Below, one piece after another: positions 1 through 25,962 of a DNA stretch of 40,900 nucleotides. This DNA is from a virus. The notes under the pieces were generated by a model that saw nothing but the letters and a program-made list of their open reading frames with translations, had not been told where the DNA came from and did not search any database. The stretch's first letter is position 1, and each line of letters starts with the position of its first letter. Location: UHGV virus genome UHGV-0205053, one strand, 5' to 3'. The position numbers and the translations under genes are program-made.

Positions 1-12
1 ATCAAGGGATAT

Positions 13-492
13 ATGATGAAAAAATTCTTGCTAGCCGGTTTAGTCGTCATGCTTACTGGTTGTGCAGCAACAAAGAATGTTGATGTCGTTGCAACTGAAA
101 AGGCTCAGGGGGATCGAATTGTTGCCTTAAATTCTGCCAGGTCACCATGGGTTTACGAGATTGAAAAACGGTTAAAACAGAAAGGCTTTACCGTGCTTCG
201 AAGTGCAAGCCAACAAGTGACGGTAGAAAAACAATCCAATAGCACTACCGGTATTTATAACGAAGCTACTGCGCGTTATGTTCTGAACTTGAATGGTTTC
301 GCTCCAAATAACGCAATGACTCGTTGCTATGGTGGCGGGTATAATTTTGACTACATTGATGCTGAGCTAATTGACGTGAAAAAGAACCAGACAATGTTCC
401 ACTATTCTAACTCTGGTTACTCTGAAAATTGCCCGCCATTGTCAGGAACAATTTTCACTGATATCACCAATCTTGTTGCAGACTCCTGGTGA
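13..492 (+). CDS. Lipoprotein (signal peptide + lipobox LTGC); function unknown, possible superinfection-exclusion or receptor-masking moron
   Basis: N-terminus MMKKFLLAGLVVMLTGC reads as a classic lipoprotein signal with lipobox. It sits immediately after the last ejection-protein gene if the genome is circularised. I recognise no family. Confidence 0.55.
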   Translation: MMKKFLLAGLVVMLTGCAATKNVDVVATEKAQGDRIVALNSARSPWVYEIEKRLKQKGFTVLRSASQQVTVEKQSNSTTGIYNEATARYVLNLNGFAPNNAMTRCYGGGYNFDYIDAELIDVKKNQTMFHYSNSGYSENCPPLSGTIFTDITNLVADSW

Positions 493-531
493 TTTTCATG
501 TGACATGTCACAAAGGCCGCAGAGCGCCCAC

Positions 532-558
532 AAAAAAGCCCGCGACGCGGGCTTAAAT
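532..558. terminator. Bidirectional hairpin terminator (GCCCGCG-A-CGCGGGC) with an A-run on one side and a T-run on the other
   Basis: Sequence is aaaaaaGCCCGCGaCGCGGGCttaaat. On the minus strand the hairpin is followed by TTTTTT, so it terminates the 553..909 gene. It also lies downstream of the plus-strand lipoprotein gene. Confidence 0.55.
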
Positions 559-909
559 GTTGACTTTCTTTGGCGCTATTGCGGCTATTGATATCATGAA
601 TCCAGTCAGCATAGCCAGTATCAGAGGTATGATGAACGCATCCGATGTTCTAAGAGGGTTCTTCATGTCACATAGCATAACGAGGAAAAAACCACTCGTT
701 GCGAATGTAGTTGATGAATACACCTCGTTCAGTTTGTACTGAAGGTTAACAACGGAAAAGTTACCAGTCTCTTTTGAGAAAAAATCCCATATCAGGTGGA
801 TTACTATATACACAAGGCACAGGATACAATAAAAGATCGCCAGTTCCTGTGCCGTTTGTGGATTGTACCAATGTGATACTTGAGCGATCTCAGGCTGCAC
901 TGCCAGCAC
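553..909 (-). CDS. Small multi-pass membrane protein (3-4 TM helices); candidate immunity or partner protein for the upstream peptide
   Basis: Three to four strongly hydrophobic helices (FYCILCLVYIVIHLIW, FFLVMLCDM, IIPLILAMLTGFMISIAAIA). GTG start overlaps the 3' end of the 890..1090 ORF by 20 nt, suggesting translational coupling. Region is low-GC. Confidence 0.4.
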   Translation of the reverse strand: MLAVQPEIAQVSHWYNPQTAQELAIFYCILCLVYIVIHLIWDFFSKETGNFSVVNLQYKLNEVYSSTTFATSGFFLVMLCDMKNPLRTSDAFIIPLILAMLTGFMISIAAIAPKKVNI

Positions 910-1090
910 TCATTTTTTTAAAAATGTAGGTTCCTGCCATAGCAAGGCCACCGGTAATAGCGAAAAGATAGGCCACACCAGTAGTAACTGTGAACGCAGG
1001 AATGATCATAGACAGGCCGCCAGATAGAGCAAAACCGCTGCCTGCCCCACCAATAATGGCTTTCATTAAAGTTATGATGTTCAGTTCCAT
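890..1090 (-). CDS. 66-aa glycine-zipper hydrophobic peptide (GxxxG-rich, two predicted TM segments); bacteriocin-like or membrane-toxin-like
   Basis: Strong SD (GAGGAGAG) 5 nt upstream of the ATG. A sigma70-like promoter (TTGGCT-17-TAATAT) lies upstream. Sequence AIIGGAGSGFALSGG...ITGGLAMAG shows a Gly-zipper pattern. A possible short GG-ending leader (MELNIITLMKAIIGG) is speculative. Confidence 0.5.
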   Translation of the reverse strand: MELNIITLMKAIIGGAGSGFALSGGLSMIIPAFTVTTGVAYLFAITGGLAMAGTYIFKKMSAGSAA

Positions 1091-1115
1091 AATCTCTCCT
1101 CAGTAAACATCGCGT

Positions 1116-1130
1116 TTACCCATGGGGTAA
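1116..1130. promoter_or_regulatory. TTACC-CATGG-GGTAA palindromic operator overlapping the TSS of the Gly-zipper peptide promoter
   Basis: Perfect 5-5-5 inverted repeat. The same motif recurs at 10 or more sites in the window. It lies directly downstream of the TAATAT -10 element on the minus strand. Confidence 0.45.
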
Positions 1131-1285
1131 TATTACATCACTGATACGTGATAGCCAATTATTTTATAGCCGCATTGCCCTTTAAACAAAGGCACTTCCT
1201 TGTGCCAGCAGCCTCAGAACGCAGCTGTGTTTTTGGTGATGTACTGCGCGTGGGGCAGGTGTCGGCATAGAGCGTGATGCGCTTT

Positions 1286-1525
1286 TCACTTCCGCATTTT
1301 GAGGAGAATGAATACCACAATTAAAGAAAAAACTAGAAGTGGAATGCCATAACCACCTGATGGTGAAAATAACATATCTATATGCGAAGTATTGCTAACC
1401 ACAATTTCTGGAGGTGGGGTTTTACCTTTTGGTGGTGGGACATCAAACCCTGTTGGTTCTGGCAGGACGTTGCCAGAAGGAACATAACCGTTTTTGTATT
1501 CATCAGGTGTTGAGAAAACGGGCAT
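1286..1525 (-). CDS. 79-aa protein: N-terminal 32 aa homologous to the N-terminus of the 963-aa ejection protein (37982..40873), fused to a C-terminal TM anchor
   Basis: MPVFSTPDEYKNGYVPSGNVLPEPTGFDVPPP aligns with MPVYSSPEELSNGFTPAGNVLPEQTGFDVPLP. Good SD (AAGGAA) 8 nt upstream. C-terminus GYGIPLLVFSLIVVFILLKMRK is a TM helix with a positive tail. DNA identity is about 70 percent, so this is not a recent duplication. Confidence 0.5.
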   Translation of the reverse strand: MPVFSTPDEYKNGYVPSGNVLPEPTGFDVPPPKGKTPPPEIVVSNTSHIDMLFSPSGGYGIPLLVFSLIVVFILLKMRK

Positions 1526-1542
1526 GAATTATTCCTTGCAAA

Positions 1543-1896
1543 TCATATGGTTTTGTCGACCTTTTCATGTAATTTCACCAGCTCTGATCTTAAGAGCACC
1601 AATGGTGTCATTGCATCGACTATCGCGATAGTCAGTTTATCAAATTCTCTCTGCCACTCTTCACTTTTGCCATCTTCAGGGAGTGATTTCGCCAGCGCCC
1701 GATAACGCTCTACCAGTTCTTTGTGACTGCCAATGGCTACGGCTGGGGCACCAGAAAGCGCATCCTCAATCATTTGCACGATCTCTGAGTTCATGGAACG
1801 TCCGTTGCTTTTGGCTCGTTCAGCAACCGCATCACGCATCCCATCAGGGAATCTGAGGTTGAACTTATCCTGCATCTGGCTTGGGTATTTGCTCAT
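1543..1896 (-). CDS. mnt: Mnt/Arc-family ribbon-helix-helix repressor (Mnt-like, 117 aa)
   Basis: FNLRFPDGMRDAVAERAKSNGRSMNSEIVQMIEDAL matches the Arc/Mnt RHH signature (compare P22 Arc FNLRWPREVLDLVRKVAEENGRSVNSEIYQRV). Divergent from the arc-ant operon. SD AGGTGA. Confidence 0.7.
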   Translation of the reverse strand: MSKYPSQMQDKFNLRFPDGMRDAVAERAKSNGRSMNSEIVQMIEDALSGAPAVAIGSHKELVERYRALAKSLPEDGKSEEWQREFDKLTIAIVDAMTPLVLLRSELVKLHEKVDKTI

Positions 1897-1930
1897 AAGT
1901 CACCTGGAAAAATTATTCAAAATTATTATG

Positions 1931-1990
1931 GGGCCAAGTTGACATATTGCGCAATGGTGTTAAATTAATATCAGGTGTCAAGTTGGCCCC
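1931..1990. promoter_or_regulatory. Divergent Pmnt/Pant promoter-operator region flanked by a near-perfect 15-bp inverted repeat
   Basis: GGGGCCAAGTTGACA ... TGTCAAGTTGGCCCC (14/15 inverted). A TTGACA -35 hexamer faces each direction. Contains the 14-mer AAATTAATATCAGG that is repeated before cro. Confidence 0.5.
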
Positions 1991-2002
1991 AAGGAGGCTG
2001 AA

Positions 2003-2176
2003 ATGCAAAAATCACTTTGTACCGAACGTAAGAACATCAAATTAAACCTTAGGCTTCCAGAGAGGCTGGACCAAGAAATACGTCGCATGGCTGAAATGGA
2101 CTGCATTTCAATAAACTCTGCGATTGTGAGATTGCTAGCGAAGGGGGTGAGAGAGGAAAGGCTAAATGTGCAGTAA
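2003..2176 (+). CDS. arc: Arc-like ribbon-helix-helix repressor (57 aa); not in the ORF track because it is under 60 aa
   Basis: Strong SD AAGGAGG. KLNLRLPERLDQEIRRMAEMDCISINSAIVRLLAKG matches the Arc RHH signature. Sits between mnt and ant as in P22 immI. Confidence 0.7.
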   Translation: MQKSLCTERKNIKLNLRLPERLDQEIRRMAEMDCISINSAIVRLLAKGVREERLNVQ

Positions 2177-2246
2177 AAACAGTGAAGCCCAACGGTGTCC
2201 AGACCGTCAGGCTTCTAATTTGTCAGCAACTATCAGGTAAACCGAC

Positions 2247-3197
2247 ATGAATACTTTAGCACTGAAGCAAAATCATTGCACCATCAGCGTACCATTCCAC
2301 GGCACTGATCTGTTTGTGGTTAACCACAACGGCGAGCCATACACCCCTATGAAGCCGATTGTTGAAGGCATGGGTATGGACTGGGCTTCACAGTTTACGA
2401 AGATGAAGAAGCGTTTTAAATCAACCATTGTGGAAATCACAATGGTTGCCAGTGATGGTAAGTCTCGCTCGATGATCTGCCTTGCACTTCGCAAGTTGGC
2501 CGGCTGGCTCAATACCATCAGCCCAAACAAGGTTAAACCAGAAATCCGTGACCGCGTGATCCAGTATCAGGAAGAATGTGACGATGTGCTCTATGAATAC
2601 TGGACGAAAGGCCAAGTGGTTAACCCGCGCAAGGCTGCGAAGACTCAGCCTGGTAAAATCACCGCTGACCAGCAGTACGCCATTAAAGAAATGGTCATGT
2701 CTCGTGGACAGGCTCTTCCTAAGGATAAACAGGCTAAGGCCATTATCACAATGTGGTCTGCGTTAAAATCGCACTTTGGTGTTTCCTACAAAGATATCGA
2801 TGCCGGGCAGTTCAATGAAGCTGTGTCGCTCGTTGCCAGGATCCCCCTCGAAGGCGAATTAATCACCGCAAGAGAGATCTTCCTTGCTGAGGAAAAATTG
2901 AGTGCCGAAGTAGTGGAAGCTATCCGTGGGGTGGTAAAAAATAATACGAAGCGATATGAGGCATCTTTGAAGCCAGGCTACCGCGAGCACATCCATTCAC
3001 CTGAGGGCGTCCTTGGCTTGACGGAGCATTCACTGCTGATGAATCTCCTTCGTCAAATGGAAGATGATGGGCATGACGTCTCCGGGGCAGCAGCTGAGTT
3101 GACAACTATTTTCTGCTATGTGACAGGGGTTAGGCGCTGCATCAGCGACATTACTACCAACGCGCAGTATATTCTTAAGCAGGTGAAAGATTTTTAG
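2247..3197 (+). CDS. ant: Antirepressor Ant (AntA-like N-terminal domain plus C-terminal domain)
   Basis: N-terminus VPFHGTDLFVVNHNGEPYTPMKPIVEGMGMDW is typical of phage antirepressor N-terminal domains. Positioned after arc as in P22 immI. Confidence 0.7.
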   Translation: MNTLALKQNHCTISVPFHGTDLFVVNHNGEPYTPMKPIVEGMGMDWASQFTKMKKRFKSTIVEITMVASDGKSRSMICLALRKLAGWLNTISPNKVKPEIRDRVIQYQEECDDVLYEYWTKGQVVNPRKAAKTQPGKITADQQYAIKEMVMSRGQALPKDKQAKAIITMWSALKSHFGVSYKDIDAGQFNEAVSLVARIPLEGELITAREIFLAEEKLSAEVVEAIRGVVKNNTKRYEASLKPGYREHIHSPEGVLGLTEHSLLMNLLRQMEDDGHDVSGAAAELTTIFCYVTGVRRCISDITTNAQYILKQVKDF

Positions 3198-3199
3198 CA

Positions 3200-3640
3200 A
3201 TGGAAGGGCCGAGCATTCGGCCCATTCTTGAGGATCAGAACGTGAATAACCAGATTAAAGACCTTTGCTTCAAAGATAACGAATCAGCATTTGAATACGC
3301 GTGTAAGTATTGCACAACTGACATTGCAGAAAGACAAGGGCTTCTGGCGCTTGTTATTACGGATCAGGAACCAGATGGCGATGGTAACGCCTTATATGCA
3401 GTAAGGGTTTCATCCAATGACGGTGGATTTGTCGTTCCGGCTATTTTTATGGCAGCACAAGCTGATTTAGGCGCCTTAGTAAAAGGAGACCTTGTTATCT
3501 GGGTGCCATCACAGTATTCGGACGAAATGGCAAAAACGTTAGGCGATCCGAGAAAGGGATGGATGGGGTATTTATCAGCGAAAGTTGAACCAAAACTAAC
3601 TAAGTCAGATGGATGGGGAATTCAGGTCCGCTACATCTAG
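3200..3640 (+). CDS. Hypothetical protein co-transcribed with ant
   Basis: ATG lies 3 nt after the ant stop codon. No family recognised. Confidence 0.45.
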   Translation: MEGPSIRPILEDQNVNNQIKDLCFKDNESAFEYACKYCTTDIAERQGLLALVITDQEPDGDGNALYAVRVSSNDGGFVVPAIFMAAQADLGALVKGDLVIWVPSQYSDEMAKTLGDPRKGWMGYLSAKVEPKLTKSDGWGIQVRYI

Positions 3641-3647
3641 TATACTA

Positions 3648-3672
3648 GGCCGCTCATGCGGCCTTTTCTTTT
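3648..3672 (+). terminator. Rho-independent terminator (GGCCGCtcatGCGGCC plus TTTTCTTTT)
   Basis: GC hairpin followed by a T-run at the end of the arc-ant operon. Confidence 0.55.
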
Positions 3673-3931
3673 ATGTTGTTTCCTGCCTCAGCTTTTCCAC
3701 GCAGTAATCGAGATGCATCTGCAGATCCTTCATGGACATCTGCGAGCTGGTGACATAGTTCACCAGGGCAGTCAGCTCTGCCATCGGGCCATCAACATTA
3801 AAGCCATCCTCACCCAACTGGCGCAGCAACGTCATCAGGTGTGAATCTTCAACAAGGGAGCGGACGCCTCCCGGCGTGTGTATGCGTTCGGCAAAGCCTT
3901 TTTCCAGCGGGTGATGATACTGACGTTGCAT
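3671..3931 (-). CDS. Small stand-alone paralog of the Ant C-terminal domain, preceded by a LexA box; candidate SOS-induced antirepressor or modulator
   Basis: ERIHTPGGVRSLVEDSHLMTLLRQLGEDGFNVDGPMAELTAL aligns with the Ant C-terminus EHIHSPEGVLGLTEHSLLMNLLRQMEDDGHDVSGAAAELTTI. SD GGAGAAT precedes the ATG at 3931. The ORF track starts at 3949. Confidence 0.5.
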   Translation of the reverse strand: MQRQYHHPLEKGFAERIHTPGGVRSLVEDSHLMTLLRQLGEDGFNVDGPMAELTALVNYVTSSQMSMKDLQMHLDYCVEKLRQETT

Positions 3932-3950
3932 CTGATATTCTCCATGCATT

Positions 3951-3970
3951 CACTGTATGTATGTACAGTA
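3951..3970. promoter_or_regulatory. LexA (SOS) box cACTGTATGTATGTACAGTA
   Basis: CTGT-N8-ACAG with an AT-rich 8-nt spacer, a near-perfect fit to the E. coli LexA consensus TACTGTATATATATACAGTA. It lies about 20 nt upstream of the 3671..3931 gene. Confidence 0.6.
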
Positions 3971-4007
3971 GCAAAAGTCCTAATGACTATCCAGCACGAA
4001 TTGCTAT

Positions 4008-4022
4008 TTACCTAAAAGGTAA
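4008..4022. promoter_or_regulatory. TTACC-TAAAA-GGTAA palindromic operator between the LexA-regulated gene and the tailspike
   Basis: Perfect 5-5-5 inverted repeat of the recurring motif. Confidence 0.4.
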
Positions 4023-4126
4023 TAACTTCTGTGATTGTTATTCATTCAATTCATATAAGGTTTGCCAGGTAATAAACTGTCCAGATGATGCACGCGCGCC
4101 GGGCGCTGCTTTACAGGAGACAGGCC

Positions 4127-6553
4127 ATGACGGTATCAACCGTAGTTGACCATAACGATTACACCGGGAACGGCGTTACGACATCCTTCCCGTACACCTT
4201 TCGCATATTCAAGAAAACAGATCTGACCGTATCGGTTGTCGACCTGAGTGAAAACATCACGGTGCTGGTTCTGGACACTGACTACACGGTGACGAATGCC
4301 GGAGGCTATAACGGCGGCAGCGTGGTGCTCACCGCCCCGCTGACGAACGGCTGGCAGATCTCCATTGCACGTGAACTGGAGCCAACGCAGGAAACAGACC
4401 TGCGCAACCAGGGCAAGTTCTTCGCCGAGGTTCATGAAGACGCATTCGATAAACTGACGATGCTCATCCAGCAGGCATACAGCGTATTCCGTCTGGCGCT
4501 GCGGAAGCCATCGAGCATAGCGAACTGGTACGACGCACTGAACAACTACATCCGTAATCTGCGCGACCCTCGCGACCCCCAGGATGCAGCTACCAAGAAT
4601 TATGTTGATACGCTGGCGAGCGGGAACTTTAACCGCACTCTGCGAACCCCTGAAAACATCCCATCACTCCCAGGTGCTGCAACCAGGGCGAACAAAATCG
4701 TTGCCTTCGATAACTCCGGGAATCCAATTGTAACGTTACCTCCATCTGGCTCTGCATCAGACGTTCTTATTGAACTGGCAAAACCTACTGGCTCTACTTT
4801 GATCGGCGGCTCTGTTTATGTGGTCGATTCATTTTCAGCTGCCCTTGCTGCGAATGCAGGACAGTCAAAGTACATCATGACGCGTGGGCACCATGTTATC
4901 GGCATTGGGGCAGCGACTTATTTTAGTGATGGTACAACTGGCGCTCCATCAACTGGCAATGAGCTTAAATTTTTCGATGTGACCGGAAAGGGATGGTATC
5001 TTCGTCACGATGGCCGCATTGATTGTCGTCAATTCGGCGTTGTGGCGGATGGAAGCGATGAAACTACGAAGTTGCAATTATGGTTGGATTGCTGCGCTGC
5101 GGCGAAGGCAGAGGCATATATCCCTGCGGGGTTGCGACCAGCTGCAATCGGCATCGTTATAAACTCTACACACAACGGACTGCAATTTAAGTTCGATGGT
5201 TTCCTTAAGTTTTTTGGCAGCGGAAACACACCCATAAACAAACCGGCACATATCAACACTGGTGCCTGCTTCTGCCTTTATCTTGATGGTGTGTTTGATA
5301 TTTCTGGTGTTATTCGCATGGACGGCAACCGGGCGGACAAACTCAACCTGGAACAGGTTCATTGCATTGGTTTGTTTGGAGGCGGAAATCATAACGTAAG
5401 TTATGAGTTTAAAGAATGTCAGGGTGATGGTTTATATATTAGTCAGTTAAATGGAAATGCAAATTCTGCAATAGCTGAAAATATTATCATACCGTCTTTC
5501 AGATCATTTAACTCTGATTACTTTGGCAGAAATGCGCTGTCAGTTATCTCTGTTAATGGTTTAAAAATTGGCACTTTCGTATCCATCAAGCATGGCGGAC
5601 TTATCAATGCCGTTACTCAGCCCTGCGCTCTTGATATAGAACCTAATTACGGGTATCAAACGTGCAATAACATACAGATTGATAGCTACTACGCAAAATC
5701 CTGCGGTACAGGCTTCACTATTTTCGGCAAGGTGAACAATGGGAATTACAACGTTCGCAATGTATCCATCTCTAAGATGGAAATCGAAATGGAATATGTA
5801 GCCGCTAACAATAACAAAATCCGTGGGGCGATGCTGATGGGAGTTGATGGCTTGTATATCGGAAGCGCACAGGTTCGCTGCCTGTCAAACTATACCGAAA
5901 ACATCCCAGTCGGCGTCCAAATTGACTCATGCTATAACGCAGATATAAATTTCTCCACTGAGAGATTCTATCAAGGTGCTGCGGTTGGAGTTTACGGCTG
6001 GAGTGAAGTTGGTGGTGTTGCGAAAGTAGTCAATGCAAAAATATCTGTAACCCCAAGAATATTTCAACGCGGAGCCACTATCGGTGATGTTAACGGGTTA
6101 GATTTTACTCTTAGAGGGTTTACTCCAACGGCGATGTCATCTGGTAGCGATGTGGGACTTGTCCAAACAATTCAGGCAGGTGCTGTTGGTTCGTCAACAG
6201 CAGTAAAATCAGCTCGTCTATCGGTGTCAAGTGGTCCTGGTGCTGCTATTACATGGGGAATTTTCTGCTCAAATACCAATATTGAGAGGGATTCCTGTGT
6301 TATACAGGATTCAGACTTATCTGTTATCGCGCACAATGGTACGACAGCCAATAGACTGATCTCCACGGCAAACTTCCAAAAGAGGAACATAGCCGGTGTC
6401 ACGCCGAAGGGTGGGGCTGACACCATCACAGGCACTAATATCTGGGGTGTTGGGGATGTGGTCAACGACCCAACATCTCCAGCGGCAGGTGGTTACATAG
6501 GTAAAGTGTATACATCTGCCGGGTGGAAATCATATGGTGCTATAGCCAGCTAA
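4127..6553 (+). CDS. Tailspike or tail fiber: T7 gp17-like N-terminal particle-binding domain plus C-terminal parallel beta-helix (pectate-lyase-like depolymerase)
   Basis: The N-terminus (YTGNGVTTSFPYTFRIFKKTDLTVSVVD...EDAFDKLTMLIQQ) follows the T7 gp17 N-terminal pattern. The repetitive beta-helix sequence is typical of O-antigen or capsule depolymerases. SD AGGAGA precedes the ATG at 4127. The ORF track starts at 4085. Confidence 0.8.
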   Translation: MTVSTVVDHNDYTGNGVTTSFPYTFRIFKKTDLTVSVVDLSENITVLVLDTDYTVTNAGGYNGGSVVLTAPLTNGWQISIARELEPTQETDLRNQGKFFAEVHEDAFDKLTMLIQQAYSVFRLALRKPSSIANWYDALNNYIRNLRDPRDPQDAATKNYVDTLASGNFNRTLRTPENIPSLPGAATRANKIVAFDNSGNPIVTLPPSGSASDVLIELAKPTGSTLIGGSVYVVDSFSAALAANAGQSKYIMTRGHHVIGIGAATYFSDGTTGAPSTGNELKFFDVTGKGWYLRHDGRIDCRQFGVVADGSDETTKLQLWLDCCAAAKAEAYIPAGLRPAAIGIVINSTHNGLQFKFDGFLKFFGSGNTPINKPAHINTGACFCLYLDGVFDISGVIRMDGNRADKLNLEQVHCIGLFGGGNHNVSYEFKECQGDGLYISQLNGNANSAIAENIIIPSFRSFNSDYFGRNALSVISVNGLKIGTFVSIKHGGLINAVTQPCALDIEPNYGYQTCNNIQIDSYYAKSCGTGFTIFGKVNNGNYNVRNVSISKMEIEMEYVAANNNKIRGAMLMGVDGLYIGSAQVRCLSNYTENIPVGVQIDSCYNADINFSTERFYQGAAVGVYGWSEVGGVAKVVNAKISVTPRIFQRGATIGDVNGLDFTLRGFTPTAMSSGSDVGLVQTIQAGAVGSSTAVKSARLSVSSGPGAAITWGIFCSNTNIERDSCVIQDSDLSVIAHNGTTANRLISTANFQKRNIAGVTPKGGADTITGTNIWGVGDVVNDPTSPAAGGYIGKVYTSAGWKSYGAIAS

Positions 6554-6599: not shown

Positions 6600-7040
6600 T
6601 TAAAAAATTAGGATGAATGGAAACAGCAAATAGGCAATAACTTCCGTTGATAAAGACCACGCCGACTCAATAATTCCATTACCTGTTACAGATTGAGCAA
6701 AGATAATATTGCAAACGTAGGTGTAAAAAGAGCGAGCCTGATCAGTCTTGCTTGTGAAAAATATGAAAACTATGCTTACTGCAAAGAAGTAAAGAGGGTA
6801 AATCCTGGTGAATCTATTATATAAAAACTTCATATAGTTATTTTCACCCACCTTGCTGATGAATTTTTCTTTGTAGACGTAGCACATTATAAATCCACTT
6901 AGAACAAAGAATAGATCAACAGCTAAGTATCCATTTCTTATAAAATCTGAACTCCACCCCATTGGATTAATGTGGTAAAACATAACATATATGGCAAATA
7001 TGCCCCTAATTCCTGTTAAAGCTTTAATTTCTTTATTCAT
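6600..7040 (-). pseudogene. 3'-truncated acyltransferase-3 family (OafA/Oac-like O-antigen acetyltransferase) remnant in an AT-rich island
   Basis: N-terminal motifs LTGIRGIFAIYVMFYH and DLFFVLSGF are the acyltransferase-3 signature. Only 146 aa are present against a full length above 300 aa. The ORF ends at the tailspike terminator. Region is low-GC. Confidence 0.55.
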
Positions 7041-7391
7041 GTTTCAAACCCAAAGCCTAACGCTTGTGAAATAAAAATAGTATTGTAGCGTATTTTTTGA
7101 TTTGGCATGGATATGCCATGCAAAAAACAATCTCATGTTTGCATTTCTTTTTCAAAATATTTCCCTAAGGAACCAGTAGAAAGGATTTCTGGCACTCTCC
7201 ATGAGCGAAGCTGAGGTGAGAGAGGAAAAGATGAGCAAGAAGTATTGTTAAAGATCCTTTTAAAATGGATAGCGCACAAGCATACACCAAGTACACCCCA
7301 ATGAATGATCGTGTTTGTGACATCTATCGATGTGGACCTGAAGAATAACTTAAGCACTTTTTCATCCGTAAAATTCAAAGCCTCACTTTAT

Positions 7392-7406
7392 CACCTTTAA
7401 GGTAAT
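7392..7406. promoter_or_regulatory. Variant operator tCACCT-TTA-AGGTAA upstream of the lysis cassette
   Basis: Inverted repeat ACCT-TTA-AGGT with a 3-nt spacer, related to the extended form TTTACCT-CAC-AGGTAAA. Confidence 0.25.
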
Positions 7407-7501: not shown

Positions 7502-7915
7502 GTGGTCACTATGTCGCACACGTTAACCACGGAATCGCTGAATCAGGGGCTTAGCCTGAGCGCGCTAATGTCTGTGGTCGCGGGTGTGCCGCCGGAGGTG
7601 GCTTTAGGGGCACTCGCAGGTGCGGTAATTTTCGTTACCTCAGCGGTGGAGTATCCCATAAAGCGGCGGTTACTTCTGGCGTTCCTCAGCTTCTTCTGCG
7701 GCCTTCTCTTCTACAAAGCGACAGCATCCATTCTTATCGGTATTGCCAGCATGATCCCCACGATTGCGCAGGACTCCTTTGAAAAGGGGATTATGTTTTC
7801 AGCGGGCGCATTCGTGTCGGCTATCGTCGCTGTCCGCATTGGCATCTGGCTGTATCACCGTTCTGAAAATCCGCGCGACCTGATCCCGGGGAGAAAAGAC
7901 GATGACCAGTCCTGA
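7502..7915 (+). CDS. Holin-like membrane protein (3-4 TM, charged C-terminus)
   Basis: Multiple TM helices and a C-terminus [18 protein letters not shown]. It is the first gene of the lysis cassette. Start is ambiguous (GTG 7502 or ATG 7511). Confidence 0.5.
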   Translation: MVTMSHTLTTESLNQGLSLSALMSVVAGVPPEVALGALAGAVIFVTSAVEYPIKRRLLLAFLSFFCGLLFYKATASILIGIASMIPTIAQDSFEKGIMFSAGAFVSAIVAVRIGIWLYHRSENPRDLIPGRKDDDQS

Positions 7916-8195
7916 CATGCTTCTCATTCTGAACGCCGCTATCTGCGGCGGCATTGCAATCCGAGTACTTCTTTTCCGCCGTGACGGGTCACGCCATCGC
8001 TGGTGGGGCGGATGGCTCGCATATCTGCTGATCGTCGTCGCTGCCAGCGTGCCTATCCGGACATTCTACGGGTACTACGATTCCGCCGACTGGTCAGAAA
8101 TCATTATCAAGGCCGTGTTCCTGGCTGCGCTCATCAAGACAAAAGGGAATGTGGTGCAAATATTCAAGATAACGAGGTCCCAGCATGGACATTAA
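7902..8195 (+). CDS. Second holin or antiholin-like protein (2 TM)
   Basis: Two TM helices. Overlaps the previous gene and precedes the endolysin. Confidence 0.45.
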
Positions 8196-8814
8196 TCAGT
8201 TCCAGCGTGCAGCTGGTATCAGTGAGGTGCTGGCCGCGCGCTGGTACCTGCATATCACCGCCGCCATGAAAGAGTTTGGCATCGAGCTAACGCTGCACCA
8301 GGCGATGTTTATCGCGCAGGTTGGCCATGAGTCCGGCGGCTTCACTAGGCTGCAGGAGAACTTCAACTACAGCGTGAACGGGCTGGCAGGATTCGTCCGC
8401 GCCGGACGCCTCACCCAGGGCCAGGCTAACGCGCTGGGCCGCCGTGCCGGTGAACCATCGTTACCGCTGGAGCGGCAGCGTGCGATCGCCAATCTGGTGT
8501 ACAGCAAACGCATGGGAAATAACGGGCCGACTGACGGCTGGTTTTACCGCGGGCGCGGGCTTATCCAGATCACAGGTCTGAATAATTATCGTGACTGTGG
8601 CAACGGCCTGAAGGTGGATCTTGTGCAGAAACCGGAACTGCTGGCACAGGATGAGTATGCGGCCCGCAGCGCAGCGTGGTTCTTCGCCACCAAAGGCTGC
8701 ATGAAGTACACCGGCGGCCTGGTGCGCGTCACGCAGATCATCAATGGCGGCCAGAACGGTATCGACGACCGGCGAGCGCGGTATATCACAGCCAGTAAGG
8801 TGCTGGCGGTATGA
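8185..8814 (+). CDS. Endolysin, glycoside hydrolase family 19 (chitinase-like lysozyme)
   Basis: [21 protein letters not shown] and the NYSVNGL motifs are characteristic of GH19 phage endolysins. Confidence 0.8.
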
Positions 8815-9299
8815 TCTGGGCACTCGTCAAAGCGTACTGGAAACAGTTGCTTATCGTGGTGATGCTTGCTGCTCTGGTCATCGTCGGGGTGGTTGCCTGG
8901 AATGTACACGGCAGCCGCCAGTACGATGCCGGGTATGCAAAGGCACAGGAAGATCAGAAACAGGCTGATGATAAGGCCAGGTCACAACGTGATCAGGAGA
9001 AAACACAAATTGAACGTGAAGCACAATCCCGTATCGATGTGGCGCGTGTTGATGCTGAGCATGCTAATACCGCTGCTGACGGCCTGCGCGCCGAGCTTGA
9101 CAAAACCAAGCGACTCGCCGAACACTATACCGGATCTTTCCCCTCTGGCACGCCAGCCAGCAAGGTCATCGGTGTGCTCGCCGACATGCTTGAAGAAAGC
9201 AACCGAGCTTACATCGCAGCAGCAGAAGAGGCTGAGCGATATCGGTCTGCAGGACTCACATGTGAGCGACAGTACGACTCCCTGAAAACGGGGCACTGA
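8811..9299 (+). CDS. Rz-like i-spanin (N-terminal TM, coiled-coil periplasmic domain)
   Basis: N-terminal [20 protein letters not shown] followed by a charged coiled-coil. Position is after the endolysin. Confidence 0.7.
9037..9285 (+). CDS. Rz1-like o-spanin lipoprotein embedded entirely within Rz in the +1 frame
   Basis: [17 protein letters not shown] contains the lipobox LLTAC. The mature part is Pro-rich ([24 protein letters not shown]). Alternative starts at 9052 or 9061. Confidence 0.6.
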   Translation: MWRVLMLSMLIPLLTACAPSLTKPSDSPNTIPDLSPLARQPARSSVCSPTCLKKATELTSQQQKRLSDIGLQDSHVSDSTTP

Positions 9300-9536: not shown

Positions 9537-9551
9537 TTACCCGAAAGGTAT
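9537..9551. promoter_or_regulatory. TTACC-CGAAA-GGTAT (9/10) operator-like site upstream of int
   Basis: One mismatch to the recurring motif. About 40 nt upstream of the int start. Confidence 0.3.
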
Positions 9552-14440: not shown

Positions 14441-14528
14441 TTACCTCAGTGTTACCGTTGAGGTAATAATTATCCTTATGTGGTTTGAAGTCAATAGGTA
14501 TGATTATAAAAAATTACCCGTAAGGTAA
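14441..14528. promoter_or_regulatory. OL-like region: TTACCTCA-N10-TGAGGTAA (14441-14466) and TTACC-CGTAA-GGTAA (14514-14528)
   Basis: Two copies of the recurring palindrome family between the repressor gene's 3' end and the start of the leftward early operon. Confidence 0.45.
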
Positions 14529-14585: not shown

Positions 14586-15176
14586 TTACTCTTGCGTTTT
14601 ACCGTTCTGAACAATCACGAAATCGACGTAGCTCTCGATCTTACTTTTCTCGCTCTCAGGTAACAATGCGTAGCGGGCCCGGTCGTAATGAATGGTCGCC
14701 GGGTCGCGGGGATGGATGAGCAGTTCATAGCCGCGGCGCCCGAACGCGCTGGCGATCGCCTCCAGGGTGGAGATAGAAACGCTAACCTCGTTGTTCAGCA
14801 TGCGGTTGATTGTCGCCTGGGCAACGCCGGACGCTTTCGACAGCTTGCCCTGGGAGGACAGGTCGCGGTTGTTTTGCATCCACAACTCGAGGTTATGCGC
14901 CGCCAGCTGGCCAATGTCGGAAGGGGTGATTTCTTCCTGGGGGATGGCAACGGCAGATAATGAGTGGTCGATGTCCAGCCAGTTGGTAGGCTTGTTCGCC
15001 GCTTTCTCAAGTTTTCGGGCAACAGTATCGCCGACAACCTTCTGACCGCGGGCCCAGCGGTTAACCAGGTTCGCCTGAGTGCCCAGTTTTTCCGCCAGAC
15101 GAGTCTGCACCCCGTTAAAGTCACGGTCGATGATATCGTTAATATTCTGCCTGCGGATATCCTGAATACTTTTCAT
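14586..15176 (-). CDS. CI-like lysogeny repressor with tandem HTH domains and no S24 peptidase domain
   Basis: Two XRE/CI-like HTH segments (GVQTRLAEKLGTQANLVNRWARGQ and LSKASGVAQATINRMLNN). Divergent from a Cro-like gene. No Ala-Gly/Ser/Lys autocleavage module. Confidence 0.55.
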   Translation of the reverse strand: MKSIQDIRRQNINDIIDRDFNGVQTRLAEKLGTQANLVNRWARGQKVVGDTVARKLEKAANKPTNWLDIDHSLSAVAIPQEEITPSDIGQLAAHNLELWMQNNRDLSSQGKLSKASGVAQATINRMLNNEVSVSISTLEAIASAFGRRGYELLIHPRDPATIHYDRARYALLPESEKSKIESYVDFVIVQNGKTQE

Positions 15177-15231: not shown

Positions 15232-15294
15232 TTACCTCACAGGTAAATGCACCCAACAGGTAACAAACCTTGATTTTTATTACCTTCTGGGTGA
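15232..15294. promoter_or_regulatory. OR-like tripartite operator: TTACC-TCACA-GGTAA (perfect; extends to TTTACCT-CAC-AGGTAAA), a half-site GGTAA at 15259, and TTACC-TTCTG-GGTGA (9/10)
   Basis: Read in the repressor/cro intergenic region. Geometry resembles 17-bp lambdoid operators. Confidence 0.55.
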
Positions 15295-16749: not shown

Positions 16750-17569
16750 CTGGATCAAGATGCGTGCCGACCTGCACACACACCCAAAAGTTGTCCGCAT
16801 GGCGTCCGCATTGAAAGCGGACAGATTGCGGATAGTTGGCGGACTACATTCCGCATGGTGTCTTTTTGATGTCCACTCCGTTGACGGTTTTCTTGACGGA
16901 TACAGTGCGGAAACTCTCGACGACCTGATCGGCTTCCCTGGGTTTTCTCGGGCAATGATGGCTGTCGGATGGCTCGAAGAAAATGGCGAAAGCCTAGTAA
17001 TGCCGCGCTTTGAAGCCCATAACGGGCAGTCTGCCAAGCGTCGCGCACAGGACGCAGACAGGAAGAGAAACGTCCGCAAAGCGTCCGCATCAGAAGCGGA
17101 CAAAAAGCGGACCAGAGAAGAGAAGAGAAGAGAAGATATAAAAGATAAACCCCACATAGGGGGCGAGCAAAATTCGCCTGTGGATAACTCTGCTAGCGGA
17201 AGTGAACCAGATCCGGATGCGAACAATGCGATGCTGAATGGCTACGTTGCTCCTGGTGGAATGGGTGAGTTTGGAAAATTCCAGATGCGCGACAACTGGA
17301 AGCCGGATCCGCAGTTCATACAGCGCGCTGCGCTGTGGGGCATAACCCTGAAGACAGACATCACGCCGTTCGAGCTGGCAGACTTCATCACGTACTGGAA
17401 AGCGGAGGGAAAGGCATTCCACCACGACCAGTGGCAGCAGAAGCTGGCGAGAAGCGTGCAGCAGTCCAGGGCAAGGCCGGTGGCCCAGCAGCAGCGAAGG
17501 GACATCAACGACGTGCCGGAGCCGGACAAAGCCATACCGCAGGGTTTCAGGGGATACCAGGCCACATAG
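16739..17569 (+). CDS. Replication initiation or replisome-organizer protein (lambda O-like, with a DnaT-like C-terminus)
   Basis: N-terminus [12 protein letters not shown] resembles replisome-organizer N-terminal domains. Iteron clusters lie within the linker-coding region. Its position after cro matches lambdoid replication genes. Confidence 0.5.
17065..17150. repeat. Candidate origin: iterons GTCCGCA x2 direct plus GCGGAC x2 inverted, then (AGAAG)4 and an AT-rich tract, inside the replication gene
   Basis: cgtccgcaaagcgtccgcatcagaagcggacaaaaagcggacc agagaagagaagagaagagaag atataaaagataaac. A second similar cluster is at 16793-16858. Confidence 0.4.
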
Positions 17570-17609
17570 CAGCACCAGCGCGGCAGCGCATTTTTTTACG
17601 CCAGCACAA

Positions 17610-17686
17610 TTACCCTGCAGGTAACAAAATATGCGCATAGCTATTGATTTTAACTCTAATGTGGATTTAAATTACCTGAGAGGTAA
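17610..17686. promoter_or_regulatory. Two perfect operators, TTACC-CTGCA-GGTAA (17610-17624) and TTACC-TGAGA-GGTAA (17672-17686); the second overlaps the SD of the next gene
   Basis: Both are 5-5-5 perfect inverted repeats. The second is GAGGTAAGTCATG, the RBS of the 17690 gene. Confidence 0.45.
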
Positions 17687-19676: not shown

Positions 19677-20468
19677 ATGAGCACTATTACCAGAGAACGT
19701 CTGCAGAGATTAATCCGCGCAATTAATAGCGAAAATTACGACGAAGAGGAAATAGTTGAGTGTGTTAACTCTGATGAAATTTTGGAGCTGGCGCGTATCG
19801 CGCTGGCATCGCTCGAAGCTGAGCCTGTGGCGTGGGCGCACAGATTAATCAACAAGCGTAACGGAGTCGCTCACCCTTGGGTTTACGGTAGCGCAGAGGC
19901 ATGTCCAAGCGAGGGGGATATCTTCAATATTGAGGTAATGCCACTTTACACAGCCCCGCCAGCGCCGGTATCTGTGCCGGATGAAGTTACTGCTGAAGAT
20001 TGCCCGGCATTCGTCAAGTATGACGTTACTGATGCAGATGAGGCATGGGCTCGCGGATTTAACGCCTGCCGCAACGCCATGCTTCAGGGTGCCGATCGAC
20101 CACAAAACGAACCGCAAAATATTCCGGAAAATATTCCAGCCACACAGTTTAAGCCGGTAGCAGACCTGTACGGCTTAACCTCACCAACTGGCGGTGAAAC
20201 ATCGTTCACTTTCGACGCTGTTGAAGCTCGCGATTTTATTGATGGCGGGTGGTCATGTCAGGAGTACGTGGAGCTTGAACGCTTTCAGGAGGCTGTGAGC
20301 GGCAACTCTCCGGTGGTGCCGGATGGTTATGCTCTGGTGCCGGTTGAGCCGACAACCAATCAATGGGCTGCCGGAATGCAAGCCTTTGATTCTGGAATGG
20401 ACAAAGTTACACGAGTATACAAAGCCATGCTCGCAGCAGCGCCGCAGCAGGAGGATAAAAATGTCTAA
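19677..20468 (+). CDS. Hypothetical protein
   Basis: SD GAGGA. Confidence 0.4.
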   Translation: MSTITRERLQRLIRAINSENYDEEEIVECVNSDEILELARIALASLEAEPVAWAHRLINKRNGVAHPWVYGSAEACPSEGDIFNIEVMPLYTAPPAPVSVPDEVTAEDCPAFVKYDVTDADEAWARGFNACRNAMLQGADRPQNEPQNIPENIPATQFKPVADLYGLTSPTGGETSFTFDAVEARDFIDGGWSCQEYVELERFQEAVSGNSPVVPDGYALVPVEPTTNQWAAGMQAFDSGMDKVTRVYKAMLAAAPQQEDKNV

Positions 20469-22472: not shown

Positions 22473-22508
22473 TTACCTGCATGGTAATAAAATTACTCAG
22501 GTGGTAAT
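22473..22508. promoter_or_regulatory. Operators TTACC-TGCAT-GGTAA (perfect; extends to ATTACC...GGTAAT) and TTACT-CAGGT-GGTAA (9/10) overlapping the TerS start
   Basis: Read immediately upstream of and overlapping the terminase small subunit start codons. Confidence 0.45.
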
Positions 22509-24693: not shown

Positions 24694-25065
24694 TTACTTA
24701 ATGGCATCAAATCCAGCGTTGATGGCTTCCGCAATATTGGCCGCATTGGTTTTATCAAATTGCCCATTTTGAATAAGCGCAGCATGCAGGCATTGCAACT
24801 TCATGTTGTATAAGTGCTCACTTCGGTAATCGGCATCTGATTTTGATAGTCCATTTTCGAATGTTTCATGTAGTCCGCCGCCCATGTTGTACCACTGCCA
24901 ACACTTACCGAACTCACGATTCAGATCGCCATCATTCAGTCCATCAATCACTGACAGGTCAGATACCGCGTATTCATGTTCAGGCTGATATCCTTCGCCG
25001 ATAGCTTGTTTCAGGTATTCTATCATCTCGCCGCGTGGCGGATTAAGTTCTTCAATCTCTCTCAT
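24694..25065 (-). CDS. Opposite-strand moron gene of unknown function
   Basis: SD AAGGTGAG precedes the ATG at 25065. It has its own minus-strand terminator downstream at 24647-24668 and another hairpin plus T-run just upstream. The ORF track starts at 25164. Confidence 0.4.
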   Translation of the reverse strand: MREIEELNPPRGEMIEYLKQAIGEGYQPEHEYAVSDLSVIDGLNDGDLNREFGKCWQWYNMGGGLHETFENGLSKSDADYRSEHLYNMKLQCLHAALIQNGQFDKTNAANIAEAINAGFDAIK

Positions 25066-25947: not shown

Positions 25948-25962
25948 TTACCTGAAGGGTAA
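25948..25962. promoter_or_regulatory. TTACC-TGAAG-GGTAA operator upstream of the head-gene operon
   Basis: Perfect 5-5-5 inverted repeat about 90 nt upstream of the gp6.7-like gene. Confidence 0.4.

Follow-up and report, generated by a model that had tools for sequence, protein, structure and literature searches.

A coupled two-gene membrane module, predicted to be Rep-responsive, in the sieA slot of an epsilon15-like phage genome

The ORF66-ORF115 gene pair

What is encoded by the two small overlapping genes that lie beside the ejection genes of the phage genome UHGV-0205053? The window, by which we mean the whole stretch of 40,900 nucleotides (nt) that was analysed, is the complete 40.9-kb genome of a temperate podovirus of the epsilon15-like (Uetakevirus) type. 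On its minus strand two open reading frames (ORFs), ORF66 at 890-1090 and its partner ORF115 at 553-900, lie between a predicted promoter and an intrinsic terminator. From their conservation, pairing and distribution we conclude that ORF66 and ORF115 are an obligate, ancient, widespread and previously uncharacterised two-gene membrane module.

ORF66 starts at ATG 1090 and stops at TGA 892-890. It is the 66-residue peptide that an earlier, sequence-only reading of the window had reported, with the sequence quoted there (residues 1-15 are MELNIITLMKAIIGG), and the strong ribosome-binding site claimed for it is in place: the Shine-Dalgarno element GAGGAG (1101-1096, minus strand) precedes the ATG by 5 nt, and relatives carry AGGAG or GGAGG at the equivalent place upstream of their ORF66 homologue. 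The product is a glycine-zipper hydrophobic protein that matches phrog_13406 (E 1.6e-35). Its family shares the motif T-x-x-K-A-x-I-[GA]-G-x-G-x-G-[FL]-A; in the family alignment Gly15, Gly17, Ala21 and Gly24 are invariant and Lys10 is nearly so. The zipper pattern, as read from the sequence, is G15xxxG19xxxS23 / G17xxxA21xxxG25. An AlphaFold2 (AF2) model of ORF66 is all helix (predicted local distance difference test score, pLDDT, 72); hydropathy and the model together indicate that the protein is likely a two-helix hairpin with a turn near Pro31, and its C-terminus is KKMSAGSAA.

The second gene ends at TAA 555-553. It had been described as a coupled 118-residue protein, which would require a start at position 909. 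The gene is real and does overlap ORF66, but its length needs correction: GTG 900 is invariant among relatives, whereas two of the three E. coli relatives have GTT at 909. The partner is therefore most likely a 115-residue protein that starts at GTG 900 and shares 11 nt with ORF66, and lengths of 66 and 115 residues are also what the gene callers of three sources give. The partner is indeed a multi-transmembrane (multi-TM) protein, as had been proposed; of the three to four TM helices suggested, hydropathy and an AF2 model (pLDDT 65) both give three, at residues 20-44, 56-80 and 85-111. The AF2 models were used for helix counts only. The partner matches phrog_36716 (E 4e-57), and since that profile begins at residue 33 of the 118-residue reading, it was probably built from N-terminally truncated gene calls. 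Conserved landmarks of the partner family are W-D, TP-F and P-K. A Foldseek comparison of the partner model (118-residue reading) with viral structures returned a best E of about 2. Inside the 5' part of ORF115 lies an imperfect 23-nt inverted repeat (802-824 / 845-867; 78% complementary, arms 20 nt apart), possibly an mRNA structure near the coupled start, or chance.

Both genes evolve under constraint. Between the window and the E. coli, Klebsiella and Serratia copies, the ratio of nonsynonymous to synonymous substitution rates (dN/dS) is 0.014-0.20 for ORF66 and 0.021-0.16 for the partner, with synonymous changes far exceeding nonsynonymous ones in both. Because of these low ratios and the PHROG family matches, we conclude that ORF66 and its partner are genuine genes under strong purifying selection. 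The two proteins belong by direct sequence membership to phrog_13406 and phrog_36716, both annotated "unknown function", and the PHROGs hold no record that these two families make an obligate pair.

How widespread is the pair? A search of the partner profile against 1.84 billion representatives gave 82 clusters (50% identity) at E<=1e-3, 42 of them at E<=1e-10. With one exception, a protein of 3,161 residues, the members of these clusters are nearly all 76-156 residues long. The exception, P0039, has 13 separate stretches that each align with the middle of the ORF115 profile (E 4e-20), and it may be a repeat protein or an artefact of assembly or translation. None of 27 diverse members of the partner family has a Pfam family, and neither ORF66, the partner nor diverse family members gave a meaningful match in Pfam, NCBIfam or PADLOC.

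A small Gly-rich hydrophobic gene stands directly upstream of the partner at every one of the 13 loci found in a scan of GTDB species (eight Yersinia species, Kosakonia, Sodalis, a Klebsiella sp. and two metagenome-assembled genomes). The same pair occurs in Serratia fonticola, in Klebsiella pneumoniae prophages and at E. coli loci. Six distant loci likewise have a small Gly-rich partner directly upstream, one on a 4.2-Mb chromosome (L018) and five on metagenomic contigs (L014, L016, L034, L035 and L037); on a further metagenomic contig (L019) the upstream partner has 154 residues and is soluble in its N-terminal part and hydrophobic, but diverged, in its C-terminal part. Wherever the DNA of a locus was examined, no orphan copy of either gene was seen. 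From the stop of the first gene to the start of the second, the spacing in Enterobacterales ranges from an 11-nt overlap to +7 nt, and it reaches about 76 nt in the distant loci. In Enterobacterales the start codon of the second gene is often GTG or TTG, and no clear Shine-Dalgarno sequence precedes it. Overlapping or abutting genes of this kind are usually translated by re-initiation, which fixes the stoichiometry of the products. The tightly coupled membrane pair of the sequence-only reading is thus borne out, by hydropathy, composition and AF2 helices as well as by the small partner found directly upstream at the loci examined. From the tight spacing and the lack of orphans we infer that the two proteins form one membrane complex, a heteromer of the inner membrane.

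Promoter, operator and the Rep regulon

The predicted promoter of the pair, of the sigma-70 type, consists of a -35-like hexamer TTGGCT (1158-1153, minus strand), a 17-nt spacer and a -10-like hexamer TAATAT (1135-1130). The hexamers and spacer are as the sequence-only reading gave them and their position is conserved, but the match to consensus is partial and scores under the threshold of a promoter scan. In the window and in the E. coli, Klebsiella, L022 and L028 copies the -35 element reads TTGGCT, TTGACG, TTGCAT, TTGCGC or TTTGCG, and the -10 element TAATAT, TAAAAT, TAAGAT or CAAAAT. Thus, in six lineages the hexamer positions are kept while the spacer has diverged, a pattern that can reasonably be taken as the phylogenetic footprint of the predicted promoter.

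The last two bases of the -10 hexamer are the first two of a 17-bp operator, ATTACCCCATGGGTAAA (1115-1131; core TTACC-N5-GGTAA at 1116-1130), which is centred on the predicted transcription start. The claim of a perfect TTACC-N5-GGTAA operator over that start therefore holds, and the motif occurs in the window far above chance. At this site it reads better as the 6-3-6 palindrome TTACCC-CAT-GGGTAA (1130-1116), and with its flanks it agrees with the consensus ATTACC-N5-GGTAAT at 16 of 17 positions. The half-sites are kept in every prophage copy while the 5-nt spacer varies (CCATG, TTAAA, TTACG, CCAGA, CCAAG or TTATT). The operator is absent from 12 of 12 chromosomal copies checked and likewise from the plasmid copy examined. 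In Yersinia chromosomal copies (L023, L024, L027 and L029-L031) a different conserved block, TTAAGGATACATAAGGATAAAG ... GGTACAATTTT ... TATATTCAAGG, lies about 60-130 nt upstream of the ORF66 homologue; this block replaces the Rep operator and suggests that these copies are under a different control, specific to the host. The second palindrome proposed as an operator, ATCAC-N6-GTGAT, was rejected: it has one perfect site in the window and four at <=1 mismatch against 1.39 expected, a chance-level frequency, and it is not found in the E. coli or Klebsiella copies.

What binds the remaining operator? The epsilon15 record AY150271.2 has seven features labelled "protein_bind: repressor, lysogeny" with the sequence ATTACC-N5-GGTAAT, and their positions are equivalent to those in the window. 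By this GenBank annotation, on which the assignment rests, TTACC-N5-GGTAA is the known operator of the epsilon15/SPC32H-type repressor. The window has 14 sites at <=1 mismatch, nine of them perfect, where 0.47 would be expected. The phage repressor expected to bind them in trans, Rep, is encoded on the minus strand at 14586-15176; it matches PDB 5D50, the SPC32H repressor (E 2e-47), and has 44% identity to the epsilon15 repressor. Another repressor candidate, at 17090-17638, was dropped when it gave no PDB match.

Apart from the cassette, single operators lie upstream of the tailspike gene (4008-4022; equivalent to epsilon15 19895-19911), between an apparently truncated acyltransferase gene and the lysis genes (7391-7405, one mismatch; epsilon15 24704-24718), upstream of the integrase gene (9537-9551, one mismatch) and upstream of the portal operon (25948-25962; epsilon15 2931-2947). 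Pairs of operators adjoin rep (14452-14466 and 14514-14528), stand upstream of it (15232-15246 and 15280-15294), occupy the early divergent region (17610-17624 and 17672-17686) and lie directly upstream of the small terminase gene (22473-22507, with starts at 22473 and 22493; epsilon15 12-27). The first and third of these pairs have a 62-bp spacing, and 62-bp pairs are also found in epsilon15. The operators at 17672 and 22493 end 2-3 nt before a start codon and so overlap the ribosome-binding region. A match at 33174, inside a gene, is probably due to chance. The register between operator and -10 element recurs elsewhere: 8 of 26 site-orientations score at least 8/12, compared with 3.2% of random positions. 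Four further perfect TTACC-N5-GGTAA sites in AY150271.2 are unannotated (24704-24718, 33341-33355, 33358-33372 and 35969-35983).

We predict that the cassette is Rep-responsive. Rep bound to an operator that covers the end of the -10 element and the predicted start would hold the cassette operon down, and the operon would fire where active Rep is lacking, that is, in a fresh infection or after antirepressor action. The second gene would probably be translated by ribosomes that have just finished the first. Repression is what the arrangement predicts; silence in the prophage is not part of the claim.

Boundaries, slot and spread of the cassette

Downstream, the cassette is bounded by an intrinsic terminator on the minus strand (528-554), whose hairpin (536-554) reads AAGCCCGCG-TCG-CGCGGGCTT and is followed by TTTTTTGTG. 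The hairpin, AAGCCCGCGTCGCGGGCTT and then TTTTTTGTG (554-528), has a folding energy of -16.1 kcal/mol (z -3.9) and a U6 tail; in the E. coli and Klebsiella copies its stem is conserved and its loop variable. It had been called bidirectional. The hairpin is strong but has a U-tract on the minus strand only: on the plus strand the stem is followed by UUAAAUGUUG, and the terminator scan reports only the minus strand. By the usual criteria it is thus no canonical bidirectional terminator. Upstream, a weak hairpin GGCAC-AAGGAA-GTGCC (GGCACAAGGAAGTGCC; 1191-1206, minus strand; -8.3 kcal/mol) is followed by TTTGTTT. It is conserved in E. coli CH468 and in Klebsiella with one compensatory change (GGCGC...GCGCC), and it is predicted to end the preceding unit and to mark the 5' boundary of the cassette. 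A terminator-like site at 693-707 is a coding artefact, lying inside the conserved segment TFATSGFFL.

The description of the locus as low in G+C (GC) content is correct, at 43.5% for the cassette and 52.4% for the window, but the whole of 1-4000 ranges from 42 to 50%. Epsilon15 and Tyrion lack the cassette; prophages of Enterobacter, E. coli and Klebsiella carry it, and among these it follows one or the other of two different upstream genes. Since some related phages carry it and others do not, and since its composition is atypical, the cassette is a moron in anatomy, as the sequence-only reading had called it, with its own predicted promoter and terminator. In a phage collection of 50,697 records, megablast and both tblastn searches gave no match, and blastn gave one 53-nt stretch confined to the promoter-proximal part of the query, which is no real match.

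Where does the cassette sit? In the P22 record the order is gene 16, sieA (leftward, with its own promoter), a terminator, orf59a and mnt, then the divergent arc, ant and the tailspike gene. In the window the order is the ejection genes, ORF115 and ORF66 (leftward, with their own promoter), a hairpin, ORF79 and the mnt-like gene, then the divergent arc-like gene, ant and the tailspike gene. The two orders match, and the cassette therefore occupies the sieA slot. In the E. coli and Klebsiella prophages the same cassette is found with the same bounding hairpins, but there it follows a Bro-N antirepressor gene. The closest copies are in Enterobacter hormaechei assemblies, and the Klebsiella version is indexed in 2,675 blocks of an assembly collection.

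The settings outside prophages are diverse. In eight Yersinia species the pair is fixed between zntB and mppA-mpaA-ycjG-tpx, and in Sodalis it lies beside an mppA-like binding-protein gene. It is near guaA in Serratia and in L018, where it is also beside hipBA; on two contigs it lies beside HicB-like or BrnA-like genes, and one copy adjoins xseB-ispA. A 4.9-kb, non-mobilisable Aeromonas veronii plasmid that carries qnrS2 quinolone resistance also has the pair (L040, NZ_CP102109.1, 1859-2409, minus strand), unannotated in the record.

The gene content of the window is epsilon15-like. Its morphogenesis half has 78-85% identity to Salmonella phages 65FD/PAT1, epsilon15, Enterobacter phage Tyrion and E. 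coli phage phiV10, and it encodes a tailspike (4085-6553), an integrase, and lysis genes at 7502-9299 (two holin-family genes, a GH19 endolysin and a spanin). Rfam and tRNA scans of the window were empty. An immI-like module comprises a Mnt-like Arc-family protein (1543-1896, minus strand), an Arc-like protein (2003-2176) and a P22-type antirepressor, Ant (2247-3197, plus strand). Between the divergent mnt-like and arc-like genes lies an inverted repeat of 16 nt with 94% complementarity (1929-1944 / 1976-1991; TGGGGCCAAGTTGACA / TGTCAAGTTGGCCCCA); both arms contain TTGACA, and it is probably here that the module has its divergent promoter and operator region. The 92-residue ORF at 3671-3949 (minus strand; phrog_450) resembles the C-terminal part of an antirepressor (phrog_1760, E 3e-6), so the window has a full P22-type Ant as well as a separate small protein that resembles the Ant C-terminus.

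Several neighbours are worth describing. ORF79 (1286-1525, minus strand), which follows the mnt-like gene and takes the place that orf59a has in P22, is proline-rich with one C-terminal hydrophobic anchor; it gave no family match, and BLASTP and hhalign comparisons found no similarity to P22 orf59a. Between the cassette and the ejection genes a predicted 159-residue lipoprotein (signal peptide plus Cys) is encoded at 13-492 (plus strand). Its gene is not in the closest Enterobacter relatives (L042 and L043), its sole match is a weak N-terminal one to the Cor exclusion lipoprotein PHROG (E 0.0018), and it may be a second, independent accessory insertion. Finally, the 146-residue ORF at 6600-7040 (minus strand), in a region of 32-36% GC, matches only positions 1-143 of the 326 of Acyl_transf_3 (E 3e-17) and has the appearance of a truncated gene for an O-antigen acyltransferase; in the same slot epsilon15 has iap-wzy(beta) and Tyrion a full-length acyltransferase gene.

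Function and relation to known systems

What does the module do? We propose that the cassette is a mobile, Rep-responsive operon for a two-subunit inner-membrane complex with a function in membrane-level conflict, and not a leader-processed, exported bacteriocin; we hold this reading tentatively, at somewhat less than an even chance. The complex would block the entry of other phages or abort their infection; alternatively, the small glycine-zipper subunit would perturb the membrane and the coupled partner would restrain it. Among possible functions, one in membrane-level conflict is suggested as the most likely by the sieA slot and by movement among prophages, a plasmid and islands beside toxin-antitoxin genes. 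To assign a function from slot, mobility and neighbours is nevertheless a guess. That ORF66 and ORF115 are the founding members of a new phage-exclusion, abortive or toxin-immunity family, in which a zipper hairpin and a three-TM partner form a mobile, Rep-wired unit, is a doubtful extension of this proposal.

A number of points weigh against the proposal. The strongest is that slow evolution and the fixed zntB-mppA position in eight Yersinia species look more like housekeeping than like an arms race. Second, no homologue of known function was found in Pfam, NCBIfam, PADLOC, the Foldseek viral library or comparisons with SieA and Iap profiles. Third, formation of a complex is argued solely from coupling and co-occurrence, and the AF2 models (pLDDT 65 and 72) are of low confidence. 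Fourth, the cassette promoter matches the consensus at 8 of 12 positions, which is below the promoter-scan threshold. Finally, a perfect operator, similarly arranged and not annotated, lies 41 nt upstream of iap in epsilon15. The iap-wzy(beta) operon of epsilon15 is active in lysogens; an operator so placed is therefore not in itself proof of silence in the prophage.

The likeliest alternative makes ORF66 an intracellular membrane toxin, which depolarises or permeabilises the inner membrane through its glycine zippers and is neutralised by ORF115, the two forming an addiction or abortive-infection module. Glycine zippers occur in channel-forming helices, and the zipper pattern of ORF66, the strict pairing without orphans and the spread over a prophage accessory slot, a 4.9-kb plasmid and islands beside HipBA, HicB and BrnA are all consistent with such a module. 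However, with re-initiation the antidote would tend not to exceed the toxin in amount. The evolution of the two proteins is very slow (dN/dS 0.01-0.2), the Yersinia synteny is stable, and neither PADLOC nor toxin-antitoxin families gave a match. Orphan genes are common for immunity genes, yet no orphan antidote gene was seen. We therefore regard this explanation as possible but unlikely.

Could the pair instead serve ordinary cell physiology as a membrane complex, for example a small channel, a transporter or a stress module, carried as cargo of benefit to the host and without a role in conflict? Its vertical synteny among the housekeeping genes zntB, mppA, mpaA, ycjG and tpx in eight Yersinia species and in Sodalis, the copy beside xseB-ispA, the strong purifying selection and the breadth of the family (82 clusters at 50% identity) would all be expected of such a complex. 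Set against these observations, a Rep operator has been acquired and kept on the promoter in every prophage copy, which ties expression to the phage life cycle, and the cassette lies in a sieA-type slot. On balance we judge a purely physiological role improbable.

Much less probable is a helper of O-antigen conversion, with ORF66 inhibiting a host envelope-polysaccharide enzyme in the manner of epsilon15 Iap. The parallels are close in form: Iap too has 66 residues and two TM segments, its gene likewise opens a leftward accessory operon, a Rep operator precedes its ATG by about 40 nt, and the acyltransferase gene of the phage itself is truncated. But ORF66 has no sequence or profile similarity to Iap (no BLASTP alignment; hhalign probability 0.2%), its partner is a 115-residue, three-helix protein and not a 10-TM polymerase, and the chromosomal copies lie outside O-antigen clusters.

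The sequence-only reading had likened ORF66 to class II bacteriocins, which would make it a secreted bacteriocin or microcin with a 15-residue double-glycine leader and ORF115 its membrane immunity protein. A small peptide followed by a coupled multi-TM protein is an order that resembles bacteriocin-immunity operons, the gene pair is found on a small plasmid, and residues 1-15 of ORF66 do end in GG, with a Gly/Ala-rich, hydrophobic remainder. The leader itself fails on conservation: the first Gly of the pair (Gly14) is Ala in 4 of 17 members, and the family motif K-A-x-I-[GA]-G-x-G-x-G-[FL]-A runs across the would-be cleavage site. The 51-residue "mature" part would be almost wholly transmembrane, and distant partners have long, variable N-termini that are not leader-like; N-terminal lengths range from 9 to about 40 residues. 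Hidden Markov model searches of Pfam and NCBIfam gave no bacteriocin, microcin or leader match for ORF66 at E<=1 or for nine family members at E<=0.1. As the sequence-only reading had itself noted, the window lacks a C39-peptidase exporter, and no Peptidase_C39/ABC exporter was found among the called genes of the loci with gene tables, although one could lie elsewhere in the host genomes. We conclude that an exported bacteriocin is a very poor prospect.

An auxiliary holin/antiholin pair that tunes lysis timing is the least likely of all: class II holins are of this size and have two hydrophobic segments, the signal-arrest-release (SAR) domain of pinholins is Gly/Ala/Ser-rich, and ORF66 fits in size, in its two segments and in a Gly/Ala/Ser-rich first one, with Rep control pointing to the lytic programme, but there is no holin family match in Pfam or PHROGs, two holin-family genes, an endolysin and a spanin already lie 6.4 kb away at 7502-9299, the C-terminus of ORF66 is short and weakly charged, and chromosomal and plasmid copies lack lysis genes.

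We return to the membrane-level conflict module as our preferred reading. The cassette is common and occurs in Yersinia chromosomes and on a qnrS2 plasmid, and neither protein has a Pfam family or a name. Should it prove to work in exclusion or toxin immunity, the known repertoire of phage conflict would gain a compact membrane system of two genes, and there would be an explanation for an occupant that recurs in the sieA-type slot of podoviral prophages in clinical Enterobacterales.

How does the module compare with known systems? Like the class II bacteriocins and microcins, it has a small, Gly-rich hydrophobic peptide, with GG at residues 14-15, followed by a coupled small multi-TM protein; it differs from them in having no model match, an unconserved GG, no exporter found and a motif across the cleavage site. 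Other small phage proteins that modify the envelope have been described in the Kapi1 and "gnarl" papers (PMC8787464 and PMC12373910), and these papers give no link to the ORF66/ORF115 family. The iap-wzy(beta) operon of epsilon15 is closer: it belongs to the same lineage and is likewise a leftward accessory operon with a 66-residue, two-TM protein first and a perfect Rep operator about 40 nt upstream in register with the -10 element. Unlike that operon, with which it shares no similarity, the cassette has a small three-TM partner in place of a 10-TM polymerase and occupies another genome slot.

With P22 sieA the module shares slot and layout, namely a position downstream of mnt and a small ORF, a terminator, a leftward promoter, adjoining ejection genes and a product or products in the inner membrane. 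SieA is a single protein of 164 residues, whereas the cassette encodes a coupled pair of 66 and 115 residues, and the likeness is positional: BLASTP gave E 0.73 or no alignment, and hhalign a probability of 0.2%. Finally, with the epsilon15/SPC32H Rep regulon the window has in common the operator motif, a Rep homologue and equivalently placed operators ahead of the terminase, portal, tailspike and immunity genes. It differs in that an operator also stands on the promoter of an accessory cassette, one not found in epsilon15 or Tyrion. An accessory cassette could thus join the Rep regulon through one operator on its promoter, and the module described here would be a case of morons becoming regulated by the phage life cycle.

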